From NCBI GenBank assembly GCA_963705305.1, contig OY970067.1, forward strand, positions 1,056,001 through 1,120,000: a DNA stretch of 64,000 nucleotides, in the 5' to 3' direction. Position 1 is the first letter of the stretch, and each line of letters starts with the position of its first letter. Below are positions 672 to 59,988 of the stretch, in pieces. The notes beneath the pieces are model-generated. The model made no database searches. It was not told the DNA's origin and saw nothing but the letters and a program-made list of their open reading frames with translations. Made by a program: the position numbers and the translations under genes. This DNA is from an uncultured Methylomirabilota bacterium. Its GTDB lineage: Bacteria; Methylomirabilota; Methylomirabilia; Methylomirabilales; 2-02-FULL-66-22.

Positions 672-763
672 GGGCGGGACACTGCTGCAGAAGGCGTCCT
701 CCGATTGATCACCCCCCCCGCCGCCGGTGCGTGCCAGGTCTCAGGATCCTTTCCGGCAGAAAG

Positions 764-1141
764 TTATGAGTATGAGGACGACTGCAAGGCGCGGGAGATG
801 GCTGCCTCTAGGAGGGATGCATCGCAGGGCTTGTCCAGATGCCCGCTGGCCCCGAGCAGCAGGGCCTGGCGAGCCGTCTCGCTGGTGGCATCCGCAGTCA
901 TCATGAGGACGGGAAGCTTGGGGTGAGAACGGCGGATGGCGGTGAGCACGGCAAAGCCGTCCGCATCCGGGAGCGAGACATCCAGCAGGACCAGATCGGG
1001 TGCCGCCCGTCGGACGGCGGCGAGTCCCTCTGCCGCCGACGACGCCTCCACCACGCAATAACCGGCACGGCCGAGCACGGCGGACACCGACCAGCGAATG
1101 AGCTTGTCGTCGTCAACGACCAGGACTACAGGCGCCTCCAT
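764..1141 (-). CDS. Single-domain response regulator (receiver)
   Basis: VLVVDDD...LVLLDVSLPDADG...MMTA...KP receiver motifs. Confidence 0.85.
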   Translation of the reverse strand: MEAPVVLVVDDDKLIRWSVSAVLGRAGYCVVEASSAAEGLAAVRRAAPDLVLLDVSLPDADGFAVLTAIRRSHPKLPVLMMTADATSETARQALLLGASGHLDKPCDASLLEAAISRALQSSSYS

Positions 1142-1252
1142 AGACAGTCCCCGGACAAAGGCCCCTCTAATCCCGAATGCTGCAGTTCTAGCGCAGAGCA
1201 CCCCATGACCGCAAAGGAAACCCCACCTTGGCGGTGAAACATCTTGGCTCAT

Positions 1253-1268
1253 AGCAAGAACAGTTCCA
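1253..1268 (-). promoter_or_regulatory. sigma54 -24/-12 promoter for the receiver gene
   Basis: Minus strand reads TGGAAC-TGTTC-TTGCT. Confidence 0.7.
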
Positions 1269-1369
1269 TCCAGGAGCCCGAAGGGGCGGGGTCCCCCGGC
1301 AATCTTTACCAGATGCTGCTTCCGAGAGCCTTGTGTGATGCTGTTCTTCGGGTTTGGGTGGGCTCGGGC

Positions 1370-1407
1370 TGCGAGAAAACTCTCACGGAGCTGCGGGGAT
1401 TTGCGCA
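1370..1407. promoter_or_regulatory. Second pair of TGCG-N8-CGCA-like sites
   Basis: TGCGagaaaactCTCA at 1370-1385 and TGCGgggatttgCGCA at 1392-1407. Confidence 0.55.
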
Positions 1408-1437
1408 GCCGCTGACGCGCGTGAAAGCGTGGGAGGG

Positions 1438-2841
1438 TTAGGGCGGGGACAGCAACCCGAACTTCTTCATCCGGGTCCGCAGCGCGTCCCGGCTGATCCC
1501 CAGGAGCCGTGCCGCCCGCACCTGATTGCCATCCGTAGCCTCCAGCGCCTGGCGCACCAGATCCCGCTCAACCTCTTCCAGCCGCAGGCCTTCCGCGGGA
1601 AGGGCCGCCGGCGCCGGCTTGGACGGCAGCGAGGGTTTGGCACCCTGCGCCCGGGCAGCCCGGTCGATCTCCGGCGGTAAGTGCTCGGGGCGCAGTGTGC
1701 CGCCGCCGGCCAGGATCATGGCCCGCTCCATGACATTCCGGAGCTCCCGCACGTTGCCGGGCCAGTGGTAGGCCTGCAGGAGGGCCCGGGCCTCCGGCGA
1801 TATCTCCAGGCTGGGGCGCCGCATCTCCCGGCCGAGCCGGGCAACGAAGCACTCGCATAGCGGCAGGATGTCCTCGGGCCGCTCCCGCAGGGGAGCGATG
1901 TAGATGGGAAAGACCTTCAGCCGGTAATACAAATCCTTCCGGAACTCGCCGGTCTCCAGGGCCCGGGTCAGCTCCCGGTTAGTGGCGGCGATGATGCGGA
2001 CGTCTACCTTCAAGTCCCGCGTGCCCCCGACCCGCCGGAAGGTCTTCTCCTCGATCAGCCGCAACAGCTTCGCTTGCAGCCCCAGCTTCATGTCGCCGAT
2101 CTCGTCCAGGTAGACCGTCCCGCCGTCAGCCTGCTCGAACAGCCCCTTCTTGAGGGCCTTGGCATCCGTGAAGGCCCCCCGCTCGTGGCCGAACAGCTCG
2201 CTCTCCAGGAGGTGCTCGGGGAGGGCCACGCAATTGACCGCCAGGAAGGGGGCGCGGGCCCGGGCGCTCTCGTAATGAATGATGCGGGCCACCAGATCCT
2301 TGCCGGTGCCGCTCTCCCCCTCCAGCAGGACCGTGGTGGCGTCGCTCTGCGCGATGCGCGGGATGAGGGCGTGAAGATCCTGGACGATCCGGCTGGTGCC
2401 GATCAGGTCGCAGAGGCACGAGCCGAGCCGCACCTCGGCCTGATAGCGGGCCACATCGCGGCGCAAGGTCCGGGTCTCCAGGGCCTTGCGGACCGTGAGC
2501 TTCAGCTCCTCCATGTCGAAGGGCTTGATGACGTAGTCGTAGGCCCCCAGCTTCATCGCCCGCACGGCCGACTCCACCCCGCCGTGGGCCGTGATCATGA
2601 TCACCAGGCTCTCCGGATCCCCGGCGCGCAGCCGCTCCAGGATCTCCAGGCCGTCGGCGTCGGGGAGCCGGATGTCCAGCAGGACCAGATCGGGGGGCTC
2701 CGCCTGGACTTTTCGCAGCGCCTCCGCCCCGCTGTCCGCCAGAAGGACCGTATACCCTTCCCGCTGCAGCTGCTGCTCCAGCGACCAGCGGATCAGGTGC
2801 TCGTCGTCCACCACCAGGATGGTGCCCGCCCCGTGCGTCAT
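1438..2841 (-). CDS. sigma54-dependent Fis-family response regulator (NtrC/AtoC type)
   Basis: Receiver domain, GESGTGKD Walker A, ESELFGHERGAFTDA, C-terminal HTH. Confidence 0.95.
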   Translation of the reverse strand: MTHGAGTILVVDDEHLIRWSLEQQLQREGYTVLLADSGAEALRKVQAEPPDLVLLDIRLPDADGLEILERLRAGDPESLVIMITAHGGVESAVRAMKLGAYDYVIKPFDMEELKLTVRKALETRTLRRDVARYQAEVRLGSCLCDLIGTSRIVQDLHALIPRIAQSDATTVLLEGESGTGKDLVARIIHYESARARAPFLAVNCVALPEHLLESELFGHERGAFTDAKALKKGLFEQADGGTVYLDEIGDMKLGLQAKLLRLIEEKTFRRVGGTRDLKVDVRIIAATNRELTRALETGEFRKDLYYRLKVFPIYIAPLRERPEDILPLCECFVARLGREMRRPSLEISPEARALLQAYHWPGNVRELRNVMERAMILAGGGTLRPEHLPPEIDRAARAQGAKPSLPSKPAPAALPAEGLRLEEVERDLVRQALEATDGNQVRAARLLGISRDALRTRMKKFGLLSPP

Positions 2842-4406
2842 CGCGCCAGATCCTCTATCCGATTCCGCGACGGGTCGACCGGCAGGCAGACGCGGAAGGT
2901 CGCCCCCTGTCCCTCCGGACTCTCGACCTCGATCCAGCCGCCGTGATCCTCGACGATGCGGCGGCTCACGGAGAGTCCCAGGCCGGTCCCGCGGTGCTTC
3001 GTGGTGAAGAAGGGTTTGAACAGATCGGGGAGGACGTGGGCCGGGATGCCGGGGCCGCTGTCGGTCACGGCGACTTCCACGACCGAGCCGGTCGTCGCCC
3101 GCCCGTCCCCGTTCCCGCCGCTCCCGTCCCGGAGCCGGGTCTGCAGCCTGGCCTGTCCGCCGCCGGGCATGGCCTGGATGGCGTTCAGGATCAGATTCAG
3201 GAACACCTGGCCGAGCTGTTTCCCGTCCGCTTCGAGCCGGGGCACCTCGGGCTGGTAATCCCGCACAACCCGCACGTGCTTGGCCTCGGGATCCTCGGCC
3301 AAAAGCAGGAGGATGCGGTCCAGAACCTTGTGGATGTCGCAGGGGGCCACATCGGGCTGCCCGGGACGCGCAAAGGCCAGGAGATCCCGTACGGTCTTGT
3401 CCAGCCGCCGCACCTGGGACAAGACCTCGCGCATGATCTCCTTGCGCGGGTTGCTGTCCGGCATCTCTTCGGCCATCACCTGGATGGCCCCGGCGATTCC
3501 GGCCAGCGGGTTCTTGATCTCGTGGGCCAGCGAGGCCGCCAGCTCTCCCAGGGAGGCCAGCCGCTCGGCCCGCTCTAGGCGCCGCTGGTGGTACACCTGG
3601 ATCTCCGCCCGGGCCGCCCGCAGCTTCTGCACCATGGCGTTGAAGCTGCGGGCCAGGTGGCCGAACTCATCCCACCGCCGGCCATCCGCATGCGCCTCCA
3701 AATCGCCGCCCTCTACCCTGGCCATGGCCCGGACGAGGGCCGCCACCGGCCGGTCCACCAGCCGGACCATAAGGAAGGCGCCGCCGCCAGCCAGGACCAC
3801 GGCGGTGAAGAGCATGGTCCAGAGGGCGGACTGCTCCATCTCGGCAATATCCGCATAGGTTTTGGCATAAGAGATGTCCACGTGCAGAATGCCGTTGATG
3901 GCCGCCTGGCTCCCATGGCACGGGTAGCACTCCGGACGGTTTTCAATGCGCTTGACGACCGAGTGGACTTCCTCGCCGTTGTCAAAAAACTCGGCCACCG
4001 TCAGGTCCGGCTGCTCCAGATACCGGGAGAGCCGGTTCCGCTGCAACGTGCGCCCCACCAGCTCCGGCGCGGAGGCCTGGAGGATCTTGCCGTTGCTGTC
4101 GAAGATGACCACCCGCCGGATATCGGGATCCCGCCCTACCTCTTGCAGGATGCGCGGAACGGCTCTGTGGCGCCCCTCGCGCATAGAGATCTGGATTCCC
4201 CGGTCGATGGCCAAGGCGATAGCCTTCGCCTTCTCCTCCGTGGCCTGGAGCATATGCTGCTTCAGGAGGCTCAGATTCCACAGCGTGAGCAGCGCCAGGA
4301 CCACGACCACCAGCAGGATCAGGGCCGCGACGAACTTGAGCTTCAGGCTGGAGAGGAGCAGTCGGGGGCGGCGCCAACCACGGAAGACGGGAAAATCGAG
4401 CGTCAT
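2838..4406 (-). CDS. Membrane sensor histidine kinase with periplasmic heme-c motif and HAMP domain
   Basis: Two TM segments, CYPCH in the periplasmic part, HAMP, AHEIKNPL H-box, N and G boxes. Confidence 0.9.
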   Translation of the reverse strand: MTLDFPVFRGWRRPRLLLSSLKLKFVAALILLVVVVLALLTLWNLSLLKQHMLQATEEKAKAIALAIDRGIQISMREGRHRAVPRILQEVGRDPDIRRVVIFDSNGKILQASAPELVGRTLQRNRLSRYLEQPDLTVAEFFDNGEEVHSVVKRIENRPECYPCHGSQAAINGILHVDISYAKTYADIAEMEQSALWTMLFTAVVLAGGGAFLMVRLVDRPVAALVRAMARVEGGDLEAHADGRRWDEFGHLARSFNAMVQKLRAARAEIQVYHQRRLERAERLASLGELAASLAHEIKNPLAGIAGAIQVMAEEMPDSNPRKEIMREVLSQVRRLDKTVRDLLAFARPGQPDVAPCDIHKVLDRILLLLAEDPEAKHVRVVRDYQPEVPRLEADGKQLGQVFLNLILNAIQAMPGGGQARLQTRLRDGSGGNGDGRATTGSVVEVAVTDSGPGIPAHVLPDLFKPFFTTKHRGTGLGLSVSRRIVEDHGGWIEVESPEGQGATFRVCLPVDPSRNRIEDLAR

Positions 4407-4582
4407 TTCCGCCCTCCCAGCGGAAACCCGGGTTCGAAGTCCGGCGGCATGGAGATTCTGGTGGACGGCTTCCGCCGGAACGACAGAAATGCAGCGGCAG
4501 CCGTCGGAGGCGGACAGCGCGTGCGCTACCACCCCATTTCGTGATGGCAGTCTCTATGGATGAGGTGCCACGGCACAGGGGG

Positions 4583-56536: not shown

Positions 56537-57070
56537 CTAGACGGGCGGCTTGAGAGCCGCGATATACGGAAGGCTCCGGTAGCGCTGGTGATAGTCGAGG
56601 CCGTACCCGACGACAAATGTGTCGGGAATCTCGAAGCCGCGATAGGCGATGGGGTGGTCCACGATCCGCCGCACGGCTCGATCGAGGAGTGCGCACACCC
56701 GCAGGCTGGCCGGGCCCCGCTCGCGAAGGATGCGCAGGAGATATCCCAGCGTGAGACCCGTGTCCACGATGTCCTCGACCACCAGCAGGTCCCGTCCGGC
56801 GATCTCCTCCTCCAGATCCTTGACGATGCGGACCACGCCTGCCGCCTTGCTGCTGGGGCCGTAGCTCGAGATGGCAATGAAATCGATAGCCGCCGGGATG
56901 GAGAGCGCCCGGGCCAGGTCCACCAGGAAGAAGGCCGCCCCCCGCAGGACCCCCGCCAGGACCAGATCGCGCCCCGCATAGTCCCGGGAGATCGCCCCGC
57001 CCAGTTCGCGAACGCGGGCGGCAATCTGATCCGCCGAGAACAGCACCTCGCCCAACTCTTCCCCTTTCAT
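56537..57070 (-). CDS. hpt: Hypoxanthine phosphoribosyltransferase
   Basis: ISSYG, VVEDIVDTGLTL, FVVGYGLD. Confidence 0.95.
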   Translation of the reverse strand: MKGEELGEVLFSADQIAARVRELGGAISRDYAGRDLVLAGVLRGAAFFLVDLARALSIPAAIDFIAISSYGPSSKAAGVVRIVKDLEEEIAGRDLLVVEDIVDTGLTLGYLLRILRERGPASLRVCALLDRAVRRIVDHPIAYRGFEIPDTFVVGYGLDYHQRYRSLPYIAALKPPV

Positions 57071-58089
57071 AGCGACTGGCCCTCCTCGCCAGGGCGAGTG
57101 GGCGCTCTGGGGGCGATGCCTGGCGGCAAGACAACCCCGTATTTCTGGATGAGGCTCCGGAAGTCCCGCCCGTAGAAGATTTTCAGCCGGATATTGGGAT
57201 ACAGCTCTCTGAGCTTACGGATCTTCCGGTTCTTCTCGGTCACCAGACTTTGCTTCAGCGTGGTCAGCTCCAGGTAAAGATCCAGGTCCGGCAGGTAGAA
57301 ATCCGGGGTGAAAGCCTCGCTGACGTGGCCGGCAACGTCCCAGGCCAGGGGGAACGATGTCGGCTCGTACTGCCAGCGGATCCGGTAAAAGTCCAGGACC
57401 CTGGCCAGCTCGGCTTCACTGGGATGAACGAATCCCGGGTGCTCCCCCAGCCCCTCTACCGAAACACCGCTCCCGCGATGCGCGATCCAGACGGCGATCT
57501 CGTCCAGGTGTCCCCCGATTGTCCGGAGCGAGGCGGCTTCTCGGATGATCGCGGCCGCCGCGTCGGAGCCCAGACGATCGGTCCTGACGATCAGGTCGTA
57601 CTGGGAGGCATCCCCCCAATCCGCACTATAATTATGGCGGATCCACTCCGCTCGCTGCCGATCGTCCTCCGCCAGCACGGCCTCGGCGTCCGCCTCGGGA
57701 ATGTTGCGGTCTTGTCGAATGGCGCTCAGGCGCGCGCCGAGACCGGCGACCACCTTCGCGTGGAGACTCCAGGGGCAATCCCGGAACAAGAACTGTCCCC
57801 CCCGCCCCACGACGACCAGATCTTCCTTCTCGGCCAGCTCCAGGAGCACCGCTTGAAGATAATCCACGTGCACCTGCGGGGCCGTGCCGTGGGGTGACCC
57901 ACCCCGCTCCTCGTCGCTGTCATCCAGCTCCGCACCGGTTAACCCGTGCTCCTGGACGAGCGCCTCGAGGCGGGCGCGGTCCACGAGGGCAAAGCCGAGG
58001 CCTTCGGCCACCTGCGTAGCCACCGCGTCTCCTTGGCTGCCAGCCTGGCGGGCGATCGTGATGATGCCCACAGCCGGTTCCCCCCGCAC
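57067..58089 (-). CDS. Fusion of a cytidylate-kinase-like domain and a PD-(D/E)XK-like domain
   Basis: ITIARQAGSQG, VVVGRGG, YDLIV; then SEAELAR.LD...WQYEP...FTPDFYLPDLDLYLELTT; stop overlaps the hpt start. Confidence 0.8.
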   Translation of the reverse strand: MRGEPAVGIITIARQAGSQGDAVATQVAEGLGFALVDRARLEALVQEHGLTGAELDDSDEERGGSPHGTAPQVHVDYLQAVLLELAEKEDLVVVGRGGQFLFRDCPWSLHAKVVAGLGARLSAIRQDRNIPEADAEAVLAEDDRQRAEWIRHNYSADWGDASQYDLIVRTDRLGSDAAAAIIREAASLRTIGGHLDEIAVWIAHRGSGVSVEGLGEHPGFVHPSEAELARVLDFYRIRWQYEPTSFPLAWDVAGHVSEAFTPDFYLPDLDLYLELTTLKQSLVTEKNRKIRKLRELYPNIRLKIFYGRDFRSLIQKYGVVLPPGIAPRAPTRPGEEGQSL

Positions 58090-58242
58090 GATGACCTGCG
58101 TGAAAGACGATCAGGTCCTGCAGCAAGCCGATGCCCCAGCGCGGTGATCAGGGGTCGGTCTTGAGGACCCGCTGGTCGTGATGGTACCAGAAAAGGGGGC
58201 GGAAGAGAATGGAGCCTCGAAAGCGGAACGCCGGCGAGAGGC

Positions 58243-58412
58243 AAATAAAAAAGGACGACCCCGAGTGACCTTCCGGCCCTTCCTGACTTCCTCGTCCAGG
58301 TTTCCTCGGTTTCCTCGGTCTCTTCCTTCCTTGCGGTCGGTCGATCTCGATTCTTCCGTCGGTTCCCTTTCCGAGGTTTCCTGGATGGCCTTCCGACCTC
58401 TCGGGATCGTCA
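58243..58412 (-). ncRNA. Candidate GGAA-repeat structured small RNA (CsrB/RsmZ-like?)
   Basis: Own promoter, 12-bp stem pairing the 5' and 3' ends, 12 GGAA motifs, U-rich tail. Confidence 0.65.
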
Positions 58413-58417
58413 TCTTT

Positions 58418-58446
58418 AATATGGCGCGCTCCACTCTCTCTGTCAA
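58418..58446 (-). promoter_or_regulatory. sigma70 promoter for the candidate sRNA
   Basis: Minus strand TTGACA-N17-CATATT. Confidence 0.7.
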
Positions 58447-58736
58447 TCCCCAATCTGGTCCTTCGTGGAAATGGATCCGCTTTCCGTCTGACGAGCTCCT
58501 TTTATCTGTCGTATCGCCCCGCGTAGCCCCGGGTACGTGTCTCTCGGCACGCTCTCGATCTTCAGGGACCCCATGTCGCAGGTGCCCATCGACATTTCGC
58601 CTGACCACGGAATACGCCCGGGAAAGTCCCGATCCGACAAAGTGGCAACACAGAGCCTTTTTGCCACCAGGCCTGTCATCTTGGTTCAGAATAGCGGGGT
58701 TGCCGCAGCTGACTCTCCCTAGACTCTCGGCGGCCA

Positions 58737-59988
58737 CTAGCCTGAAGCCGACTCCGGCGGAACGGAGGGGATCTTCAGCCCGGCAGTCAGATAAAACCGC
58801 GGGAACAGGAGGTCGTCTTCTGCGCTGACCATCCCTTCCCGAACGGCTGTCCGGGCCAGGGCCGTGCGCGGGTAGATCCGGATCCCCGCCGTGACCTTGA
58901 GGCCGTCGAGGCCCAGCGAGGCGGCGAAGGCGAGACTTTCCTCGATCGATTCCTGGGTTTCCCCCGGCCCCCCCAGCAAGAGGAATCCCATCCGGCGAAT
59001 GCCGTGATCCGCAAAGCGATCCGAGATCTCGCGGACCTCCGCCGGCCGGAACCGCTTGTTCATGGCTCGAAGCATTCGCGGCGAGCCGCTCTCGAATCCC
59101 AGGCTCACCTCCGCGCAGCCGGCCTCGCCCATGGCCCGAACCAGCTCCGCCGGGACCTGGTGGGGGTAGAGGATGCAGCGCCAGACAACGTCCAGCCGTT
59201 GTTCTGCGATGCAGCGGCAGAGGTCCAGGGCATAGGCCGGCGGGAGATTGAAGGTGTTATCCACGAAGTAGAAGCGCCGCACCCCGCATTGCGCCAGGCG
59301 CGTCATCTCCTCCGCCACCCGCCGAGGAGTGCGGGCGCGGATCACCCGGCCCTCGATGCTAGCGGTGGAGCAGTAGGAACAGTCCAGCGGGCACCCCCGC
59401 CGGCTCTGGATCGGGATCCACGCCTCCGGGTCGGCGGGATCCTCTCCCGGCCACAGGTCGGCTTCGGGGGCAGGCAGGGCGTCCAGGTGGCGGACCGAGG
59501 CCCGCGTCCGGCGGCCGGTGCGGCCGGGGGCACGGACTCCGGGCAGATCGGACGGATCCCTCCCTCTCGCCAGGCGCGCCAGTAGATCCGGGAAGGCGTC
59601 CTCTCCCTCGCCGCAAATACCGAAGTCGGCCCCGAGATACGCCAGGGCTGCCGCCGGGAAGATGCTGTATCCCGCACCACCCAGGACCAGCGGAGCGGAC
59701 GATGCGGCCCGACAGGCCGAGACGACTCCCGCGACCTGGTCCAGGAGAAACCGCGGCGGATGCATGCACTGGTCGTCGATGTTTCGGATGGAGATGCCTA
59801 TGACGTTCCGGCCGAACGGACAGGATGCTTCGCGGAATGGCCGTCCCCGGATCTGGCTCACGCAGAAGGTCCAGGAGGACCGTCGCGTGACCGGCGGCGC
59901 GAGCCGCCGCAGCGACCAGTGCGGCCCCCAGGGGGCGCGCGGGGAGGTTGACTCGCTCCGTGTTGGCCGAGATGAGCAGGACCTTCAT
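58737..59988 (-). CDS. B12-binding radical SAM protein, frameshifted at about 59805-59840
   Basis: MKVLLISAN...PLGAA in one frame; IGISIRNIDD...GGAGYS...RGCPLDCSYC...FVDNTFN in another. Confidence 0.85.

Follow-up and report, generated by a model that had tools for sequence, protein, structure and literature searches.

The stretch of DNA analysed here (64,000 nucleotides (nt) of contig OY970067.1, positions 1,056,001 to 1,120,000, from an uncultured Methylomirabilota bacterium, assembly GCA_963705305.1; hereafter the window) encodes on its minus strand a small RNA of ~160-165 nt (58247-58411) that belongs to an unnamed RNA family without a match in Rfam. As shown below, the members of this family share a covarying 12-bp closing stem (P1), a near-invariant basal module, a variable purine-rich interior, and adjacency to a gene for a T7-endonuclease-I-like (Endo-I-like) protein and to hpt. 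We propose that such an RNA, transcribed from its own promoter to its own terminator, would work through a protein that reads the basal module, with the neighbouring protein as the first candidate, and we hold this reading with a confidence just short of even. The neighbour is placed first because it co-occurs with the RNA, because the two stay adjacent through rearrangements, and because its predicted fold is of a structure-specific nucleic-acid-binding type. The RNA in the window shows the family features: P1 with the A.A mismatch and the GGUC/GGUC tandem G.U pairs, its own promoter and U-run, and adjacency to the Endo-I-like gene and hpt. The window's genome is represented by one contig of 5.65 Mb (98.9% complete), in which the small RNA is single-copy.

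The minus strand of 58243-58446 matches exactly the transcription given in an earlier sequence-only reading of the window, which had proposed a discrete structured RNA with a TTGACA-N17-CATATT promoter and an end-to-end closing stem followed by a U-run. A consensus scan recovered this promoter (58446-58418; -35 hexamer TTGACA, 58441-58446; -10 hexamer CATATT, 58418-58423; spacer 17 nt) as the sole sigma-70-like site in 57500-59200, with 10/12 matches versus 0.2 expected from shuffles; at the -10 position the aligned relatives read TATATT or TATCTT. The transcript would start at G58411, 7 nt past the -10 hexamer, and end inside the U-run. P1 is formed by a 5' strand GACGAUCCCGAG (58411-58400) pairing over 12 bp with a 3' strand CUCGGGGUCGUC (58265-58254) that doubles as the terminator stem, and UUUUUU (58247-58252) follows directly 3' of it. 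A simple terminator scan of 57500-59200 found none around the small RNA, since the stem that precedes the U-run is the long-range closing stem. These elements show the small RNA to be a stand-alone unit running from a near-consensus sigma-70 promoter to its own closing-stem/U-run terminator. The proposal of a discrete RNA is borne out in each of these respects, and it is further supported by the Rfam result and by the covarying conserved structure described below.

BLAST and a covariance model built from four sequences (R1) placed the RNA in 4 of the 21 genomes of the window's genus. The genus-wide R1 search scored, through a first-look filter, 129 of ~750-3000 candidates per genome and found only these 4 close homologues; more distant members were located via the neighbouring gene, not by genome-wide R1 search. 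Beside that gene, unfiltered R1 matches were obtained in 17/17 loci with a full-length orthologue (22-193 bits) and in 13/13 loci where only the C-terminal domain matched (18-37 bits; 12/12 when L043, from the unpublished genome G055, is left out), and the RNA adjoins the gene in all 30 Methylomirabilales loci tested. R1 also matched 41 of 80 metagenome loci, 19 of them being full-length close relatives at 133-177 bits. Strict end motifs adjoin the gene in 24 of 80 species-genome loci, and among these are loci labelled Ignavibacteriales, Latescibacterota, Acidobacteriota, Deltaproteobacteria and Syntrophobacter. Scripted extraction from 190 overlapping-set loci yielded 92 with strict end motifs and at least 9/12 P1 pairs; these correspond to 72 distinct sequences and 45 representatives at <85% identity, of which 44 were kept (alignment A7) after the coding-like L148 was dropped. 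Total length ranges from 136 to 199 nt, the interior varies in both sequence and length but in most members takes the form of a long, imperfect hairpin, and the purine fraction averages 0.61 (range 0.53-0.69). TTGAC is found at -35 in 40 of the 42 representatives with enough upstream sequence, and a U-run follows P1 in 42 of the 44.

The conserved part of the family is its paired base. On the 44 representatives P1 and the adjoining helix P2 are 94.0% paired, compared with 30-53% when the partners are slid; compensatory changes occur at 10 of the 16 P1+P2 pairs, and there are 104 double-change cells versus 38.6 +/- 5.5 in shuffles. The base consists of G12-C147, an A13.A146 mismatch, G14-C145 and then tandem G.U/U.G pairs, so that the basal module reads 5'-AGAGG(U/C)(C/U) opposite 5'-G(G/A)UCACU. 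In the window its 5' half (A13 of the mismatch and GGUC of P2) lies at 58395-58399 and its 3' half (GGUC of P2 and A146) at 58266-58270, both on the minus strand. C8, C9, G12, G14 and U144-C147 (UCAC) are invariant across the 44 representatives, A11, G12, A13, G14 and G15 are invariant or nearly so in A7, and the G15.U144 pair is kept in 42 of 44. The invariant G.U pairs in P2 indicate that the minus strand is the structured one.

Above the base the predicted structure of the window's RNA is a long rod. The minimum free energy (MFE) of the 170-nt sequence is -68.3 kcal/mol versus -52.7 +/- 3.5 for shuffles (z -4.44; 0/200 shuffles as stable). Alignment A5 contains 23 close relatives (this sequence and 22 others), most of which fold as one extended hairpin, the plainest exceptions being G001 and L130, which branch. 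The rod model gives 78.6% paired cells on A5 versus 27-46% with slid partners, a figure that is favoured because the rod structure was derived from one of the rows, and double changes at 17 pairs versus 7.8 +/- 1.7 in shuffles. Covarying structure in relatives, which the sequence-only reading had named as a check, is found on the 44 representatives as well as on the 23 close relatives. The internal details of that reading fared differently. The inner stems UCCAGG/CCUGGA and CCUCGG/CCGAGG turned out to be alternative pairings, not those in the MFE structure, and neither of the two "mirror hairpins" is conserved: all 22 A5 relatives lack the 3' one, and the four GGYC segments are paired across the rod in the MFE structure, where they flank a GGAA/GGAA internal loop. 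A description of the family f7 form as local hairpins with a loop-loop pseudoknot was dropped for a like reason, the same segments pairing across the rod. A small open reading frame (ORF) within the RNA was also considered and dropped, as close homologues differ by indels of 8, 2 and 1 nt.

The repeat content that first drew attention to this sequence was confirmed by counting: the 158-nt body holds 12 GGAA and 13 GGA. Dinucleotide shuffles contain 3.9 +/- 1.5 GGAA and 0/5000 reach 12, and the mean across the window is 0.69 GGAA per 158 nt; GGA as such shows no enrichment beyond dinucleotide content, with 919/5000 shuffles reaching 13. A GGAA density so far above chance, together with the purine richness that recurs across the family and the GGAA/GAAA-rich character of the Syntrophobacter-like and Bacillota forms, could point to a sponge for a GGA/GGAA-binding protein, either CsrA or another purine-motif binder. 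The position of the motifs argues against this. The only hairpin loop of the predicted MFE fold is GCAA, a GNRA-type loop at 58331-58334 (minus) that closes the apical hairpin CC-GA-CC/GCAA/GG-AA-GG (58325-58340, minus), and 0/13 GGA lie in a hairpin loop. In close relatives the GGAA strands are replaced by Watson-Crick helix strands: the apical GA/AA 2x2 positions become GA/UC in L126 (both Watson-Crick), GG/UC in G007 (Watson-Crick or wobble) and GA/CU in the L131 type, and GGGAACC/GGAAACC of the window's RNA is represented in the L131 type by GGCGUCC/GGACGCC, with seven Watson-Crick pairs. From these replacements it follows that the GGAA motifs are helix strands and internal loops with purine.purine oppositions, not looped GGA. 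The interior in this clade is made of short C-rich/G-rich helices split by purine.purine mismatches, for example (CCGA)n opposite (GGAA)n, and this accounts for the 12 GGAA. The other 43 representatives contain 0-7 GGAA, which makes the richness clade-specific.

The proteins expected of a Csr-type system are missing as well. CsrA (PF02599) gave 0 matches in the window's genome, the control being positive in three known genomes, and neither FliW nor Hfq was found in it. Of five relatives that carry the small RNA, G001, G003 and G022 likewise lack CsrA, and G007 and G042 encode it. Within Methylomirabilales the distribution of CsrA is thus patchy, four of the genomes searched (G000, G001, G003 and G022) being without it and two having it. 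The small RNA is not a CsrA sponge, as the sequence-only reading had suggested it might be, and a sponge for some other purine-motif binder is in our view quite improbable.

The RNA does not correspond to a known class. No Rfam 15 family (4227 families) matched the 64-kb window at the gathering score; at E<=10 the region 57900-58800 gave two chance-level matches, both outside the small RNA, and no match over the RNA was obtained at E<=1 in two sets of relatives' loci (9 and 11). A match to a housekeeping RNA such as 6S or signal recognition particle (SRP) RNA would have removed the novelty. A canonical 6S RNA is found elsewhere in the genome (4757152-4757341, 87.2 bits), as is an SRP RNA (68.9 bits), and at the small RNA locus there was no match to RF00013 (6S) at E<=10 or to RF00169 (SRP); the small RNA is neither of the two. 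In the literature we did not find a description of such an RNA or of the PF13189 protein subgroup encoded next to it, and the main texts of PMC5737381, PMC2864571 and PMC8632094 contain no mention of cytidylate, hpt, NC10 or Methylomirabilis.

The gene that follows the RNA (57067-58071, minus) encodes an N-terminal cytidylate-kinase-like domain (PF13189) and a C-terminal T7-endonuclease-I-like domain of the PD-(D/E)xK fold. Homology was used to place its GTG start at 58071; the longest ORF begins at 58089 and the gene caller's 318-aa version at 58023. The next gene in the same direction is hpt (56537-57070, minus; hypoxanthine phosphoribosyltransferase, TIGR01203, 189.8 bits with a cut-off of 150), whose position next to the kinase-like gene is conserved in relatives. 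The 3543 homologues of the C-terminal region carry no functional name and are labelled PF13189 or "cytidylate kinase" and nothing else. Lys-Ser/Thr is missing from the P-loop region, whose sequence is (A/S)RQxGSxG(D/E). A profile built from 46 C-terminal domains gave a match to T7 endonuclease I (E 9.7e-5), with PDF aligned to PDF and IELT to VETK of T7, so that the catalytic Lys position is occupied by an invariant Thr. The AF2 model of the C-terminal domain alone has a pLDDT of 79, while within the whole-protein model the C-terminal half is <50. In Foldseek the top rows for the domain are PD-(D/E)xK nucleases (T7 Endo I, NucS, Bax1 and Vsr), all weak; the first row is 2pfj (probability 0.93), the best E is 4.4e-3, and no match was obtained at E<=0.001. 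The PD-(D/E)xK assignment is drawn from the ranking of these weak matches together with the sequence profile, and on this modelling the domain looks like a structure-specific nucleic-acid-binding domain with a T7-endonuclease-I-like fold. On the other side of the RNA, upstream, lies a B12-binding radical-SAM gene (58737-59861, minus). The three other genus genomes do not have it within ~1.5 kb of the RNA, whose left neighbour is accordingly not conserved.

The association of the RNA with the kinase-like/nuclease-like gene holds both in occurrence and in position. In all four genus genomes with the RNA the same two genes follow it, and full-length orthologues of the neighbouring protein are present in the same 4 of 21 genus genomes and also elsewhere in the order, in other families. 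The protein search was set against a pattern scan that covered 251 genomes of the phylum. In family f7, 11 of 20 genomes have the RNA together with the gene and the other 9 have neither; in family f4 the gene is found in 12/15 and the RNA pattern in 14/15 genomes with G055 included (11/14 and 13/14 without it); in families f9 and f10 (180 genomes) the pattern is about as frequent as the reversed-pattern control. The gene count for f5 includes G028. Within the genus the pattern hits beyond the four are one in G002 and a second one in G007, both coding-like. Five genomes lack the gene and all have hpt; a full-length R1 match was found at 0/5 of their hpt loci. The RNA therefore tracks the nuclease-like gene, not hpt. 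This bears on a purine nucleoside triphosphate sensing model, an inference of ours in which synthesis of a purine-rich RNA beside hpt would couple ATP/GTP supply to expression of the locus. The model would explain why the RNAs stay purine-rich while their interior sequence changes, why 140-nt windows in the Bacillota loci reach a purine fraction of 0.71-0.74, and why hpt is a constant neighbour. It is contradicted by the hpt loci that lack both the nuclease-like gene and the RNA, it leaves the invariant basal module unexplained, and we consider it very unlikely.

The position of the RNA relative to the gene differs among lineages, and adjacency is retained in three different arrangements. In the window's clade (g1-like loci) and in G022 (f3) the RNA precedes the gene on the same strand. 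Families f4-f7 have it convergent with the gene, as do the loci labelled Ignavibacteriales, Latescibacterota, Acidobacteriota and Deltaproteobacteria, and there the RNA's 3' strand and U-run encode, on the opposite strand, the protein's last codons and its TGA stop. In Syntrophobacter-like loci it is downstream of hpt on the same strand. A TPP riboswitch (RF00059, 65.4 bits) was also observed at the G022 locus (L018:655-762, minus), ~0.75 kb past the 3' end of the kinase-like gene. The order in the window, with promoter, RNA, terminator, 175 nt and gene all on one strand, is the one that a cis-regulatory 5' leader of the downstream gene (a riboswitch or attenuator) would have, and the sequence-only reading had offered a cis-regulatory RNA as its second option. 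A leader would keep a constant 5' untranslated position, which the orientation in most lineages does not allow, and copies of the RNA also occur away from the gene. Moreover, g1-like loci conserve a TGnTAnnAT block in the spacer, ~60 nt past the small RNA's U-run and ahead of the conserved GTG start at 58071; in the window this extended -10-like element reads TGgTACCAT (58189-58181, minus) and, judged by its motif and position, is likely a separate promoter of the downstream gene. The changes of orientation and this element together argue against a 5' leader, which we regard as the least credible of the alternatives and highly improbable.

The convergent loci suggest a second cis-acting role, that of an antisense regulator in which convergent transcription, or a duplex of 150-200 bp, would lower the expression of the kinase-like/nuclease-hpt operon. 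The overlap of the RNA's 3' strand with the last codons and TGA of the gene fits such a role, and so does the convergence of the longer Bacillota form (see below) with hpt. The same-strand arrangements, upstream in the window's clade and in G022 and downstream in the Syntrophobacter-like loci, do not fit it, and the basal module with its strand-specific G.U pairs is kept where no overlap exists. The protein tail differs in the loci without RNA overlap; the RNA is therefore the constrained partner, and the tail follows the RNA, not the reverse. General antisense control is rather unlikely on these grounds.

Additional copies of the RNA were found in genus g4, with 2-4 per genome. The g4 gene locus (L212) has two, one in the interval from the gene to hpt and the other past hpt, both antisense; further copies are in unrelated neighbourhoods (BrkB/TPR, DUF502/YchF and MFS/DUF1573/PrmA), where they are antisense to nothing related, a further difficulty for antisense control. 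Copies in g4 include L208:2973-3144, L209:2947-3120, L210:3007-3160, L211:2744-2894, and L213:2285-2454 and 4344-4513, and TTGACA promoter, basal module and U-run are present in every g4 copy. The g4 ORF beside the RNA is 187 aa long and has no PF13189 match at E<=1e-4, so the Endo-I-like domain is the constant neighbour. In G023 two near-identical RNA copies lie 2 kb apart. The paralogues, which carry different interiors, could be taken as trans-acting base-pairing small RNAs with seeds in the variable interior and a conserved base that merely serves as stabilising stem and terminator; the strong promoter and terminator of an independent transcription unit suit that idea too. The conserved part of the family is a paired base, not a single-stranded seed, the window's genome has no Hfq, and the tight linkage to one gene would go unexplained. 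We therefore judge base-pairing regulation in trans to be improbable, about as much so as a sponge.

A longer RNA is found at 22 of 160 loci, most of which carry the label Syntrophomonadaceae or Bacillota. It is a purine-rich RNA of ~315 nt, convergent with the 3' end of hpt (for example L072:3139-3452, minus, with 21 further loci), and its promoter is very strong, with an A/T-rich upstream tract. Its 5' end is ACCAGGUUCCGAGAGACUG, and its 3' end is GGUCUGUUGGRRCCUGGU followed by a U-run. The end motifs, UUCCGAGAGACU and GGUCUGUUGGAA, are related to those of the short form, and the ends pair; by our own reading a G.G mismatch lies one position from the A.A site of the short form. R1 touches this RNA weakly (14.7 bits, E 0.16), and in Rfam at E<=10 it gave chance-level matches only. 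RNase P RNA, OLE and the large SRP RNA were considered as its identity and, with no Rfam match, dropped. The ~315-nt Bacillota RNA is probably a long form of the same family.

Several points weigh against the proposal that the small RNA works with its neighbour through the basal module. Among the 80 genome loci with the gene, 56 lack the strict motif within 1.5 kb (some of them carry the longer probable relative), and a loose pattern applied to five genomes with the gene and without an adjacent RNA gave only coding-like, chance-looking matches. Related genomes are not independent, and one deletion can remove adjacent genes, so that the co-occurrence counts are to be read with this in mind. The covariation of the interior rests partly on an alignment whose tested structure came from the window's own sequence. 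The rod is not universal either: the MFE structures of the 44 representatives have one hairpin loop in 19 cases, two in 10, and three or more in 15. The extra g4 copies are a better fit to a general RNA-binding partner than to the neighbouring protein, and, together with the lineages that have the gene and no canonical RNA nearby, they make it less likely that the two are paired exclusively. That the small RNA is expressed, and where its promoter and ends lie, is itself deduced from the DNA.

With these points in mind, the working model is as follows. The small RNA would act by binding a protein, which would recognise it at the invariant basal module. The likeliest partner would be the neighbouring kinase-like/Endo-I-like protein, with its predicted structure-specific nucleic-acid-binding fold and a Thr in place of the canonical catalytic Lys. 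In lineages with the convergent arrangement, where the RNA runs over the gene's stop codon, an added antisense role on the operon may exist. The narrower statement that the RNA is a dedicated partner of this protein (a subunit, decoy or regulator), bound via the A.A and tandem-G.U module, is possible and is put forward tentatively. It is in the same measure doubtful, if conceivable, that such an RNA-protein pair represents a previously unknown ribonucleoprotein that five or more bacterial phyla have kept together with hpt and that takes a longer form in Bacillota.

Through this analysis an odd GGAA-rich sequence becomes a recognisable RNA family with dozens of distinct members and a sharply conserved basal module. 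Its genomic partner is a P-loop-like domain fused to a junction-resolvase-like domain without the canonical Lys, and if RNA and protein work together they would form a new bacterial RNA-protein system. Its members are found in lineages that are difficult to investigate (NC10, Acidobacteriota, Latescibacterota and syntrophs), and they offer an initial way into the function of this PF13189 protein subgroup. It also illustrates that a dense GGA repeat need not imply CsrA, since here the repeat is produced by helices with purine.purine mismatches.

The RNA can be compared with four known systems. With the CsrB/CsrC/RsmX/RsmY/RsmZ sponges it shares small size, its own promoter and terminator, and many GGA-containing motifs. 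It differs from them in that CsrA and FliW are lacking, the GGA motifs lie in internal loops and helix strands instead of hairpin loops, the motif count is not conserved in the family, and no Rfam Csr/Rsm model matches; the sequence-only reading was right to remark that the RNA departs from classical CsrB. It resembles 6S RNA in size, in a rod-like fold with paired ends and in its strong promoter, and is distinguished from it by the canonical 6S RNA elsewhere in the genome, by a predicted fold without the large central bubble and by the lack of an RF00013 match. RNA antitoxins offer two parallels in gene arrangement. In type III ToxI systems the order is promoter, RNA, terminator and nuclease gene, as in the window, and in 3'-overlapping type I systems the RNA is convergent with the gene and overlaps its 3' end, as in other lineages of this family. 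ToxI has a tandem-repeat array of ~36-nt units, in place of which the window's RNA has only a 9-nt unit repeated 2.3 times, and the partner here is a protein of 320-340 aa, with no known toxicity, in an operon with hpt across phyla. Y RNA differs in its basal-module sequence, and the window's genome has 0 matches to the Ro/TROVE domain (PF05731) and the RNA no Y-RNA match in Rfam. The likeness to Y RNA lies in the architecture: the paired ends form a conserved stem with a non-Watson-Crick feature, a possible protein site, a variable module stands above it, and the RNA gene often adjoins the gene for an RNA-handling protein.

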